DNA of 42,281 nucleotides from a virus. Its lineage: Duplodnaviria > Heunggongvirae > Uroviricota > Caudoviricetes. This document shows, in pieces, positions 2,851 through 30,725 of the stretch. Made by a program: the position numbers and the translations under genes. Numbering within the stretch: position 1 is the stretch's first letter; each line of letters begins with the position of its first letter. The notes beneath the pieces were generated by a model. It was given only the letters and a program-made list of their open reading frames with translations. It was not told the DNA's origin and did not search any database. The stretch lies in the IMG/VR virus record IMGVR_UViG_2778261538_000003; one strand, written 5' to 3'.

Positions 2851-3265
2851 GCCATTCAATATCGGGTGCTGTTGACGTATCAACACGCATCAGCAGCACA
2901 CGGTATTTCTTCCATTGGGTGAGAGTTGAAGTTTCTTCATCAGTTGCGATACCAGCATCAACAGCATCCTGACGCCAGGATATTTCACTGTCAGCTTTTG
3001 CACGAAATGTGGCTTTCATGTTTTCTGCATCTGATATTTTCTGTTCTGGTGAAAGCGGCGGCTCATCAACCCATGCAAGGGTCCCTGAAACCATTCCCAG
3101 CATTTTTCCTGTTGGCTTATTTCCCCCATTAAATCTGACAGCATCCTCATCGCTGATTTCAATACCATCCTGCGGCCATGTCCCCTCCTTGATATAACTT
3201 TCATATAGCGCTGCGTTGTAGATTGCATTTTCGGACGGGCTGTAAACACTTTTAACTTTATTCAT
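2822..3265 (-). CDS. tail fibre assembly protein (Tfa/U-like, expressed orientation)
   Basis: 147 aa ending ...VDTSTAPDIEWPTPPA; immediately downstream of the minus-strand tail-fibre gene. Confidence 0.8.
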   Translation of the reverse strand: MNKVKSVYSPSENAIYNAALYESYIKEGTWPQDGIEISDEDAVRFNGGNKPTGKMLGMVSGTLAWVDEPPLSPEQKISDAENMKATFRAKADSEISWRQDAVDAGIATDEETSTLTQWKKYRVLLMRVDTSTAPDIEWPTPPAAQAR

Positions 3266-12057: not shown

Positions 12058-12455
12058 CCCAGCGAATCGGCGACCACCCGCGCCACCAGCTGCAGCATGA
12101 CCAGCAAGTCAATATCATCAAACATCAGTTCGCCCTGGGTAAATACCGGCACCCATCCGTCCATATGACGCCGCGATACCACCGCAAGACAGGGATGAAT
12201 AATCGCATCGGTGTCATCTTCGGTCAGGGAAGACAGTTCCTCAGCGATACGCGGGAGCATGGTTTCAAACACCGGTTTTAACTGTTCGAATTTCACGGTG
12301 TCGATTTTGCCGTCAGCAGGCAAACGGGAGCGAATACTCCCGAAATCTGACATCATTCCTGCCAACACCGGCAGAAGTTTGCGGGTCACTTTCAGTTGGT
12401 CAAAAACGCTGAGTTTTGCCGTGCGATATTTCACGCCTTTAATTTCGAATTCCAT
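12003..12455 (-). CDS. tail assembly chaperone (G-like)
   Basis: 150 aa, acidic; located between tail tube and tape measure genes. Confidence 0.6.
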   Translation of the reverse strand: MEFEIKGVKYRTAKLSVFDQLKVTRKLLPVLAGMMSDFGSIRSRLPADGKIDTVKFEQLKPVFETMLPRIAEELSSLTEDDTDAIIHPCLAVVSRRHMDGWVPVFTQGELMFDDIDLLVMLQLVARVVADSLGNFLPTPLTSTTQSLQQG

Positions 12456-28389: not shown

Positions 28390-28590
28390 TTACGCCTTTT
28401 GTCTAGCTGTCACTTCCTGAAAAAGCTTTTCTATCGCACGTACTGTAGAAAAGCGAGGGTCAGAATGAACCCCGGTGAGAAGCCGACTAATAGAAGACTG
28501 CTTCACGCCTGCAATTTCGGCAATTTGGTTTTGGGTATACCCTGAATCAATCAAGCTTTTGACCATCTCTTGTGGTGTTAGTCCGGACAT
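28390..28590 (-). CDS. Cro-like HTH transcriptional regulator
   Basis: 66 aa with HTH (TQNQIAEIAGVKQSSISRLLTG); divergent from the CI-like gene, first gene of the minus-strand early operon. Confidence 0.7.
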   Translation of the reverse strand: MSGLTPQEMVKSLIDSGYTQNQIAEIAGVKQSSISRLLTGVHSDPRFSTVRAIEKLFQEVTARQKA

Positions 28591-28731
28591 ATTTAAGTCT
28601 CCACTTTCGTCTATAGCGCAAATTTATACGAAAACGGATTATTCAGCAATACGGCAATTCTATATCATCCTGGATTAAAATATCCGATAACGCATAATCA
28701 CCGTCCCTGTATACAACATGGATGAATCCAA

Positions 28732-29406
28732 ATGATTGATACTACCGATATCCTTTCTCAAAACATCAAGTACCTGATGGACAAAGCCAAGATAAGCTCG
28801 ATAACTGAGCTGGCACGTCGGTTACAACTGAACCAACCAACGCTACACAGGCTGGTATCAGGAGAGGTGAAAGATCCGAAATACGCAACGTTAAAGCAGA
28901 TCGCCGACTACTTCCACGTGTCACCAATAGACCTGGCAGAAAGGAGCCTTCAAGAAATGGAGAAAGAGGACGCGACGGGTATAAAAACGTATATTTCTCT
29001 TAGGTTTAATAAAGTACCTGTTTTGGGAAACACTCAGCTAGGCGTTGGAGGACTTTGGAGCGACACCCAATATTCAGTAGGTAGCAGTGATGGTTTCATA
29101 TACTGGCCGACAAAGGATGAAGATGCATACGCCCTGAAATGTGTTGGTGATTCAATGATGCCTAGAATCAAAGAGGGTGAGTTCGTAATCGTCGAACCCA
29201 ACCACGACTACACTCCTGGTGATGAAGTACTTGTGGTTACCCGGGACGGTGAGGTCATGGTTAAAACCTTCTTGTTCGAACGCGATGGCCTGTTCCATCT
29301 AATGTCTGTAAATGAAGATCATCCACCAGTCAGAGTACCACGCGAAAACATTGAAAAAATCCATTACGTGGCGGGGATCGCCAAATCCGCGCTACGCATG
29401 TACTAA
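28732..29406 (+). CDS. CI-like repressor (N-terminal HTH, C-terminal LexA/S24 autopeptidase domain)
   Basis: HTH near the N-terminus; S24 Ser/Lys dyad context CVGDSMMPRI ... VMVKTF. Confidence 0.9.
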   Translation: MIDTTDILSQNIKYLMDKAKISSITELARRLQLNQPTLHRLVSGEVKDPKYATLKQIADYFHVSPIDLAERSLQEMEKEDATGIKTYISLRFNKVPVLGNTQLGVGGLWSDTQYSVGSSDGFIYWPTKDEDAYALKCVGDSMMPRIKEGEFVIVEPNHDYTPGDEVLVVTRDGEVMVKTFLFERDGLFHLMSVNEDHPPVRVPRENIEKIHYVAGIAKSALRMY

Positions 29407-29436
29407 CCTTTACAGTCTGATAACTTACTTCTGATC

Positions 29437-29469
29437 AAACCGCTCTCCACAAGGGCGGTTTTCTTATTT
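29437..29469 (+). terminator. rho-independent terminator downstream of the CI-like gene
   Basis: AAACCGCTC-tccacaag-GGCGGTTTT followed by CTTATTT on the plus strand. Confidence 0.5.
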
Positions 29470-29490
29470 GCAAAATAATTCATTTTCGTA

Positions 29491-29519
29491 TTGACGCAAA
29501 ATCCCATAACGCATATAAA
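29491..29519 (+). promoter_or_regulatory. near-consensus sigma70 promoter (TTGACG - 17 bp - TATAAA)
   Basis: -35 at 29491-29496, -10 at 29514-29519; points into an ORF-free region; the spacer contains the 10-mer ATAACGCATA also found upstream of the CI-like gene. Confidence 0.5.
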
Positions 29520-29781
29520 TACGATGCCGCATAATTAATGCGTTTTTTAATACCAGCTCTTTAACAAACTGAACCGCGTGACAGGTAAGCCGCAGTACTC
29601 CTGGCAAAATGAAATGGCACCCGATGGGATCGAGGTAAGCGCCGAGTCCGTATGCGTACGGTAAGCGTAGAGGACAACACCGCGACGAACTGATAAGTCA
29701 CGCAAGTTGAAACGCCCCGACGATGGGGCGCTTAGTTCCTTTAACTCTGGGTGGCCGGAAGGGTACCCATGCTTAAAGAAA

Positions 29782-30351
29782 TTACTGGTTGTAAGGATCG
29801 TAATCCGTGATTGCCTTCCCCGGATTTTCATCTTCAGCAGGCAGTCTGGCCTCTAAAGCATTTCGGTTGAACAGATAGGAAGCCCTACAGTGCGAACAAA
29901 CCATATTAACGGCTCGCCCAAGGCCTGGCTTAATAACCAGACCTTCCGCTTGCAATATAGATTTTCTCTTTTGCTCGTAGCAATTGGGACAAATATAAAC
30001 CGGAGATTGGTCAGTATCTGCAGAAAGCTTGCTGCGATAGACCAGAGTACCCCGCATAGGCTGGTAAAGTTCATAGCTCGCCGCTTCAGCGGCCCAGTTC
30101 TCTTGCTTTACTTTCTCATTTTCCAGTTCAACAATTTTCTCCTTAGCCGCAATCAGCAGCTCCTGAAGCGACATTTGCTGCATCTGAACATCCATTAGCT
30201 TATCGAGTAAGGTGTGCGTCTTCTCTTTAACTGCATAGTCGACAGTCAGATTCTGAATCTCTCTTGCTGCTCCAACCGCGCCTTTAATTGCTCCTCCCAC
30301 GCCGGATAACGATTCAGTTATCCGGGAAAGAATTCCTTTTTCTTCAGACAT
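29782..30351 (-). CDS. hypothetical coiled-coil protein with C-terminal CxxC...CxxC zinc ribbon
   Basis: 189 aa; ATG with GAGAG upstream; CPNCYEQ...CSHCRA; transcribed opposite to both the CI-like gene and the early-left operon. Confidence 0.5.
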   Translation of the reverse strand: MSEEKGILSRITESLSGVGGAIKGAVGAAREIQNLTVDYAVKEKTHTLLDKLMDVQMQQMSLQELLIAAKEKIVELENEKVKQENWAAEAASYELYQPMRGTLVYRSKLSADTDQSPVYICPNCYEQKRKSILQAEGLVIKPGLGRAVNMVCSHCRASYLFNRNALEARLPAEDENPGKAITDYDPYNQ

Positions 30352-30481
30352 ATCTAATCTCTCTCAAACTGTAGGGGTGAAGAGATATTAGACGATTTCT
30401 CACTGTAGGGGTACAAGGAGAACCACCTCGCCTGATGTGGTTAAAAGCAGGCACTCGATGATATCCATGTAATTGCTGTGT

Positions 30482-30507
30482 GTAGTCTTTGCCCGCCGCA
30501 AATGACG
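30482..30507 (+). terminator. rho-independent terminator preceding the early-left operon
   Basis: GCCCG-ccgcaaatga-CGGGC followed by TTTTTT on the plus strand. Confidence 0.6.
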
Positions 30508-30554
30508 GGCTTTTTTATGTCTGAAAGCGCACTCGCAACAGCGCGCTCCCCGAT

Positions 30555-30725
30555 ATGAAAAAAGGAATACAACCGATGAAACCTGAACACCTCTATCGAC
30601 TGACGGGGCGCGATGTTCTCCGTTATCGCCGTAAAAACTTCGATTTGATGACCGGTCTGGCCGTTGCCACTGCGCTCGGTCTGATCATCACTTTCATTCT
30701 CCTTGTAGCGAGGACCACAGTATGA
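30555..30725 (+). CDS. small membrane protein (56 aa), translationally coupled to the next gene
   Basis: Hand-translated [56 protein letters not shown]; its stop overlaps the downstream start (ATGA); below the ORF-track size cutoff. Confidence 0.3.
   Translation: MKKGIQPMKPEHLYRLTGRDVLRYRRKNFDLMTGLAVATALGLIITFILLVARTTV

Follow-up and report, generated by a model that had tools for sequence, protein, structure and literature searches.

A 14-bp dyad as the probable operator of a CI/Cro-type immunity switch in an APSE/YeP4-like Escherichia coli prophage

Genes and repeated sequences of the immunity region

The DNA analysed here, referred to as the window, is a stretch of 42,281 nucleotides from a caudoviral genome (IMG/VR record IMGVR_UViG_2778261538_000003). 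It represents a prophage with an early region of the APSE/YeP4 type. Within the immunity region that was compared, it is 99.9% identical to Escherichia phage vB_EcoM-606R2, and 104 of 5426 complete E. coli genomes (~2%) contain it; a search of genome contigs with its repressor returned four loci only. The immunity region contains two divergent genes separated by 141 nt, namely a cro-like gene (28390..28590, minus strand; 66 aa; Pfam HTH_3, 1.2e-9; phrog_6831, transcriptional regulator), immediately 3' of which lies a prim-pol/DUF5906 primase gene, and a cI-like repressor gene (28732..29406, plus strand; 224 aa). The CI-like protein is composed of an N-terminal HTH domain and a C-terminal S24/LexA-type peptidase domain (Pfam Peptidase_S24, 2.6e-18; HTH_26, 3.7e-12, and also HTH_3; phrog_4, transcriptional repressor), and its GDSM and VKTF motifs are kept in the alignment. 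At the level of structure, only LexA-type C-terminal domains were matched (E ~0.004), with no close solved relative. The motif RL(V/L)(S/T)G..DP(K/R)(Y/F)xT is common to the CI- and Cro-like proteins, which is consistent with both of them reading the same sites. The cI transcript is predicted by a terminator scan to end at an intrinsic terminator (29437..29461, plus strand) consisting of a 10-pair stem and a T-rich tail.

A preliminary description of this DNA had pointed to an identical decamer, ATAACGCATA, on either side of the cI-like gene. Both copies are exact, the first at 28687-28696, 36 nt upstream of the cI-like ATG (28732), and the second at 29506-29515, since the position originally given for it (29507-29516) was one base too high. 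The second copy covers the spacer and the first two -10 bases of the promoter-like sequence TTGACG (29491-96), 17 nt, TATAAA (29514-19). A rival explanation would be a chance repeat or shared promoter sequence to which no protein binds, stemming either from the A/T-rich context of a -10 hexamer or from a promoter that was duplicated long ago: in a sequence of 42 kb, about 850 pairs of identical 10-mers are expected by simple arithmetic, and -10-like hexamers abut both copies. The similarity around the decamers reaches 16 of 18 nt, and a repeat search places the decamer within a family of 17-nt repeats with four members (28626, 28682, 29501, and 29519), beside a 24-nt inverted pair (28626-49 and 29468-91) that could itself reflect a duplicated promoter. 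Alignment of the repeat copies yields a 14-bp dyad, ATnCG-N4-CGnAT, with a 5-4-5 geometry of half-sites and spacer. In the two sites designated B and D below, the decamer consists of the spacer (ATAA) followed by the right half-site (CGCAT) and one A from the flank, and it is therefore not itself a half-site, contrary to the earlier proposal.

The pattern ATNCGNNNNCGNAT has five exact matches in the window compared with 0.78 in shuffled sequences, and about 160 nt of regulatory DNA hold three exact matches and two matches with one mismatch; the remaining exact matches (6004 and 22989) fall within long open reading frames and were taken as chance. A weight matrix built solely from the sites of relatives and scanned over the whole 42-kb window ranks site B (28682) first, site D (29501) second, site A (28626) sixth, and site C sixteenth, and 6 of its 20 top matches fall in the two regulatory stretches (~160 nt). 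Site B scores 18.9 bits, which is reached by 2% of the shuffles, and is the only site that is individually significant with this matrix; site E scores low. High matrix matches at 12195 and 17514 lie inside long open reading frames and were likewise attributed to chance. The similarity of 16 of 18 nt together with the repeat family, the enrichment of the pattern, and the ranks obtained with the relatives' matrix argue that the decamer pair is not a chance repeat.

Positions of the dyads in promoters and conservation among relatives

Five copies of the dyad, here termed operators A to E, were located, two of them (A and B) in the cro/cI intergenic region and three (C, D, and E) downstream of the cI terminator; compared loci are given by L numbers. 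Operator A (28626..28639; ATACGAAAACGGAT) is an exact match to the pattern and fills positions -25 to -12 of a putative lytic leftward promoter, Pcro (28621..28649, minus strand), which has the -35 hexamer TTGCTG (28649-28644), a 17-nt spacer, and the -10 hexamer TAAATT (28626-28621). The TTG of the -35 hexamer and the A2 and T6 of the -10 hexamer are kept at the same offset in L019, YeP4, and L026 (TAGATT, TAGTTT; TTGATA, TTGTTT). Operator A shows no variation in nine distinct variants of the same immunity, and ATCCGAAAACGCAT is found at the equal offset in YeP4 and L026. Operator B (28682..28695; ATCCGATAACGCAT), again an exact match, includes the first copy of the decamer and is also free of variation in the same-immunity variants, relatives having ATGCAATAACGCAT or ATGCAAATTCGCAT at the equal offset. 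It lies at two candidate -10 hexamers for a cI (maintenance) promoter (28676..28698, plus strand): TAAAAT (28676-81) directly adjoins it in the window and in L026, and CATAAT (28693-98) overlaps it; neither candidate has a good -35 hexamer. A third operator between A and B was considered and rejected, as the sequence ATACG at 28650 lacks a right half and has a G that is not constant among relatives.

The three downstream sites are arranged along a PL-like early rightward promoter (29491..29519, plus strand), formed by the TTGACG-17-TATAAA sequence mentioned above and probably starting transcription near 29526. Operator C (29478..29491; ATTCATTTTCGTAT; one mismatch) abuts the -35 hexamer and overlaps its first base; relatives vary in it at one N position only (CGTAT to CGCAT), and YeP4 has ATGCATTTTCGGGT there. 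Operator D (29501..29514; ATCCCATAACGCAT; one mismatch) includes the second copy of the decamer and fills positions -25 to -12 of PL, the very slot that operator A occupies in Pcro. Its variation is confined to N positions, and its YeP4 counterpart is ATGCAATATCGCAT. Operator E (29519..29532; ATACGATGCCGCAT) is an exact match covering about -7 to +7 of PL; three of its four spacer bases vary in close relatives with both half-sites constant, and the YeP4 counterpart is ATGCGTTAACGGAT. The centres of C, D, and E are spaced by 23 and 18 bp. A TTGAC -35 sequence at a fixed distance upstream of a boxA was found in all immunity types inspected. A consensus promoter scan called neither PL nor Pcro, in the first case because the -10 hexamer TATAAA is without T at position 6, and in the second because the -35 hexamer matches at three of six positions only.

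In a comparison of nine distinct same-immunity variants per region, 32 of 226 intergenic columns vary. The 40 operator positions that the dyad specifies are all constant, and variation is seen at 6 of the 30 N positions and at 26 of the 156 remaining columns (hypergeometric P = 0.0012). The dyads are kept at a greater distance as well: YeP4, L080, L113, and the L026 group, with repressors of about 61% identity, have matching dyads at identical offsets in both regions within diverged intervening DNA. YeP4 also has the same gene order, its second promoter reading straight into the early operon. In L064, where the repressor is 55% identical and its recognition helix starts with PQPT instead of NQPT, the operator reads ATTCA-N4-TGAAT in the same 5-4-5 geometry. 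L022 and L023 combine the same phage backbone with an unrelated LexA-family repressor and have TTACAGG..CTTGTAA palindromes at the equivalent places, and the lambdoid prophage L021 has a further, different operator motif. In four immunity types, the two regions flanking the repressor gene share 5-9 octamers compared with 0.6-1.1 expected, and the shared words differ from type to type.

On these sequence comparisons, the enrichment of the dyad, its conservation, and its change with the repressor are the signature of repressor operators. The alternative of a chance repeat or duplicated promoter sequence is very improbable: promoter function is unrelated to dyad symmetry, only N positions vary, the same dyad is kept at the level of 61% repressor identity while its flanks diverge, and heteroimmune phages have different palindromes at the equivalent places. 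The earlier proposal that the decamer belongs to a shared operator element linking the divergent cro/cI promoters to the promoter downstream of cI is thus supported by conservation, by co-variation with the repressor type, and by overlap with promoter elements. A repressor homologue of 63% identity was also observed in L003 (2200-3520), preceded by two matching dyads and followed by chromosomal-looking genes, including a ferredoxin-like open reading frame with Cys-rich motifs; no OL/PL cluster and no leader are present there, and the locus is apparently a stranded repressor remnant.

A lambda-like layout and its alternatives

We consider it probable (about 80%) that the decamer is a fragment of the 14-bp operator of a prophage CI/Cro-type immunity switch, which would comprise five copies at three promoters in the layout known from phage lambda: cro and cI diverging from OR, followed by the cI terminator, OL/PL, a boxA leader, and the early operon. 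In the lysogen, dimers of the CI-like protein, with its HTH and S24 self-cleavage domains, would occupy A and C to E and thereby switch off both lytic promoters. Operator A would act from within the spacer of the leftward lytic promoter reading cro, the primase gene, Q, and the late genes, and operators C, D, and E, downstream of the cI terminator, would cover the upstream edge of the -35 hexamer, the spacer, and the start site of the promoter in the role of PL. Operator B, on or beside the -10 hexamer and start of the cI promoter, may serve either autoregulation or the shut-off of cI by the Cro-like protein.

It is unlikely that the dyads, as real binding sites, serve only one regulator, for example the Cro-like protein, or some other factor of phage or host, to the exclusion of the maintenance repressor. 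Such a restriction would agree with the recognition region being only partly common to Cro and CI, but each change of the cI/cro pair is accompanied by a change of the motif, so that a host factor is excluded, and coverage of both lytic promoters is what a maintenance repressor needs. The reading as a CI/Cro-type switch is also consistent with the features shared with lambda-type switches, that is, divergent genes, a repressor with HTH and LexA/S24 domains, two operator clusters, and co-variation of operator and repressor.

Like lambda, the prophage has operators between divergent cro and cI genes, a three-site cluster on a promoter that lies 3' of cI and reads in the direction of cI, a CI protein with HTH and S24 self-cleavage domains, and a boxA soon after the PL-like start. 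The centres of lambda operators are spaced by about 20-24 bp, comparable to the 23 and 18 bp of C to E. Unlike those of lambda, which are 17 bp long, the dyads have 14 bp, the distance between the two operator clusters is about 0.85 kb instead of 2.4 kb, and the rest of the phage is APSE/YeP4-like and not lambdoid. Furthermore, only two conserved sites, 56 bp apart, are present between cro and cI, so that a cooperative three-site switch in the style of lambda is not supported. With phages 434 and P22, the system has in common short dyad operators, a Q-rich recognition helix in an HTH_3-type domain, and Cro and repressor sharing sites; the operator of phage 434 likewise has 14 bp. It differs from them in the half-site, ATnCG, and binding is in this case deduced from the sequence. 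Gene order and homologous proteins agree with the APSE/YeP4 early module (repressor P1, regulator P2, primase/ATPase P3, and Q), and the dyads occupy the same offsets in YeP4, whereas an additional reverse gene and an RprA-like element are found between leader and early operon in the E. coli phage.

The operator map, consisting of a 14-bp dyad, five sites, and three promoters, is one for the APSE/YeP4-like immunity switch of which we found no earlier description: a literature search on YeP4 and the vB_EcoM phage names returned no operator study, and the word "operator" is absent from the comparative paper on APSE/YeP4 (PMC8579659). It allows the immunity group to be predicted from sequence and indicates that the arrangement OR, cI, OL/PL, boxA known from lambda is also found in phages that are not lambdoid. 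For the most part this is a confirmation, because an ordinary lambda-like immunity switch is textbook biology.

An inverted repeat further downstream, CCGGATAAC-gattca-GTTATCCGG, had been regarded as related to the decamer and as marking a second control point. It is present exactly as described (30302-30325), yet it is at chance level and does not fit the dyad. It lies in the coding N-terminus of a 189-aa open reading frame (29782..30351, minus strand; phrog_1244, function unknown; C-terminal CxxC...CxxC), and it is identical in L022 with its unrelated repressor and different operators, which indicates that the repeat travels with the 189-aa gene and not with the immunity system. The gene has been inserted in reverse orientation in the interval from the leader to the early operon; YeP4 and L023 lack it. 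A model that unites decamer half-site and inverted repeat in one regulon and takes the repeat for an additional operator could draw on the heptamer GATAACG common to the repeat and the site B region and on a one-mismatch pattern match at 30320 that overlaps the right arm of the repeat. This model has hardly any credibility, given the coding location and the identity in a heteroimmune phage, and because the window contains GATAACG 21 times (4.5 expected from dinucleotide shuffles) and 42 short inverted repeats of the same class, and the match at 30320 is missing from the top 20 of the relatives' matrix. The occurrences of GATAACG lie nearly all in coding DNA and are probably a codon-context effect.

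The boxA-led leader and the DNA preceding the early operon

About 30 nt past the probable start of PL lies the only exact copy in the window of a boxA (29556..29567, plus strand; GCTCTTTAACAA), which fits the gamma-proteobacterial consensus GYTCTTTAANA (PMC5725501). It forms the 5' end of an unannotated leader RNA (29556..29739, plus strand, with the 3' end at 29730-39) that is structured and about 175-185 nt long. The fold, derived by hand, comprises the helices P1 (29576-82/29697-703), P5 (29589-97/29678-86), P5' (29599-602/29671-74), P3 (29620-35), and an optional P4 (29640-67) as well as a 3' hairpin (29713-30). When this fold, which is based on compensatory changes, was tested on 64 distinct sequences, the same ones as used for its derivation, pairing was found in 92.5% of the cells (slid controls, 25-48%) and changes on both sides in 17 pairs (controls, 4-7), and the covariation score was 0.121 (controls, at most 0.042). 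Thermodynamics alone does not support the fold, since the z-score of the single sequence is +0.56, and RNAalifold recovered only fragments of it from automatic leader alignments.

The leader is a discrete module that is 85-100% identical behind at least 12 operator/promoter (immunity) types. It is present in 104 E. coli genomes, where the annotation among the matches listed is none or hypothetical protein and in no case an RNA gene, and no leader family was found in Rfam, whether the region or the leader by itself was scanned, even at E up to 10. Among deposited phages, the full-length leader was detected only in four vB_EcoM-6xx isolates; YeP4 gives a weak match to the covariance model (E = 5.6e-5). 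This model finds a single leader at each locus and no other one in the window, and no second, nutR-like copy was found with it in the window or in L001-L099.

Transcripts from PL would have to pass the reverse 189-aa gene and a canonical terminator (~30490-30520) before reaching the early replication operon at 30555 and onwards, and the scan gave no consensus promoter downstream of that terminator. Because of this obstacle, we infer that the leader is most likely a nutL-like, possibly N-independent, signal for processive antitermination, which is the least secure part of the present account. Its own 3' hairpin is not a clear terminator, as a clean U-tract is lacking, and a hairpin at 29528-29542 followed by a T-run was rejected as an attenuator, its stem being broken by a G-to-A change in the close relatives L016 and L007. 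A boxA shortly downstream of an early promoter is what an N-dependent nut site would have as well. In contrast to such sites and to lambda, what comes after boxA is the P1 stem of a large fold and not a small boxB-type hairpin with an A-rich loop, and no N-like arginine-rich protein was found among the first downstream open reading frames of the window, L021, and L023.

Lambda nutL and the put element of phage HK022 share with the leader the location directly downstream of a PL-type promoter, a structured nascent RNA, and terminators ahead of the early genes. HK022 put is about 70 nt long, consists of two stem-loops, has no boxA, and occurs as putL and putR (PMC9378689), in contrast to the longer leader with its consensus boxA first, its multi-helix fold, and its single copy per phage; a homology to put was therefore rejected on length, boxA, helix layout, and copy number. 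An RNA of the put type also has no requirement for Nus factors or boxA and is located downstream of both early promoters. The "Nus-dependent non-lambdoid" phages of the mEpimmI type (PMC11893012) were also set aside as a different group, for which an N-like Gp17 and another nut arrangement have been described, and the blastn matches did not include mEp021. The conserved boxA-led leader is the more interesting by-product of this analysis, as Rfam has no family for it and it could act as an antitermination element of a new kind. Tentatively, and with considerable doubt, it may represent a new class of cis-acting processive antitermination RNA, in which boxA and a covarying multi-helix fold would act as an equivalent of nutL or put by means of host Nus factors and independently of a phage N protein, and which would be a mobile module of at least 12 immunity types in temperate enterobacterial phages, both APSE/YeP4-like and lambdoid.

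Several minor features were observed around the leader. Its lambdoid hosts (L021 at 2900-3000 and about 15 others, e.g., L030, L032, L035, L058, and L082) have an extra conserved stretch of about 60 nt between promoter and boxA, CATCGAAACGAAACATCGACAGCTGAGCGAAGTTAGCCAGCGGCGGACAGCAAGTCGCCTG, which is absent from the type found in the window. At the place equivalent to that of the 189-aa gene, the lambdoid prophage L021 has a reverse-strand gene annotated as "ECs_2282 family putative zinc-binding protein". Upstream of the 189-aa gene, the sequence (A/C)ACTGTAGGGGT occurs at 30367-30377 and 30401-30411, 34 bp apart, and an inverted copy is located at 29883-29892 in the 3' part of this gene. The segment 30356-30454 around the first two copies, a possible regulatory region, has 83-87% identity to DNA, for the most part unannotated, of about 1200 E. 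coli genomes. Finally, the DNA separating the PL leader from the early operon also holds an RprA-like small RNA element (30407..30520, plus strand; Rfam RF00034), which is found in 19 of the loci compared. Its score of 50.2 bits is below the gathering score of 70, with good alignment restricted to the 3' third and the terminator. A 25-nt stretch, AATTGCTGTGTGTAGTCTTTGCCCG, is common to the RprA consensus and the element, which ends at a canonical terminator and shows no relation to RprA in its 5' part. The element could mimic, on the part of the prophage, a host regulatory RNA.
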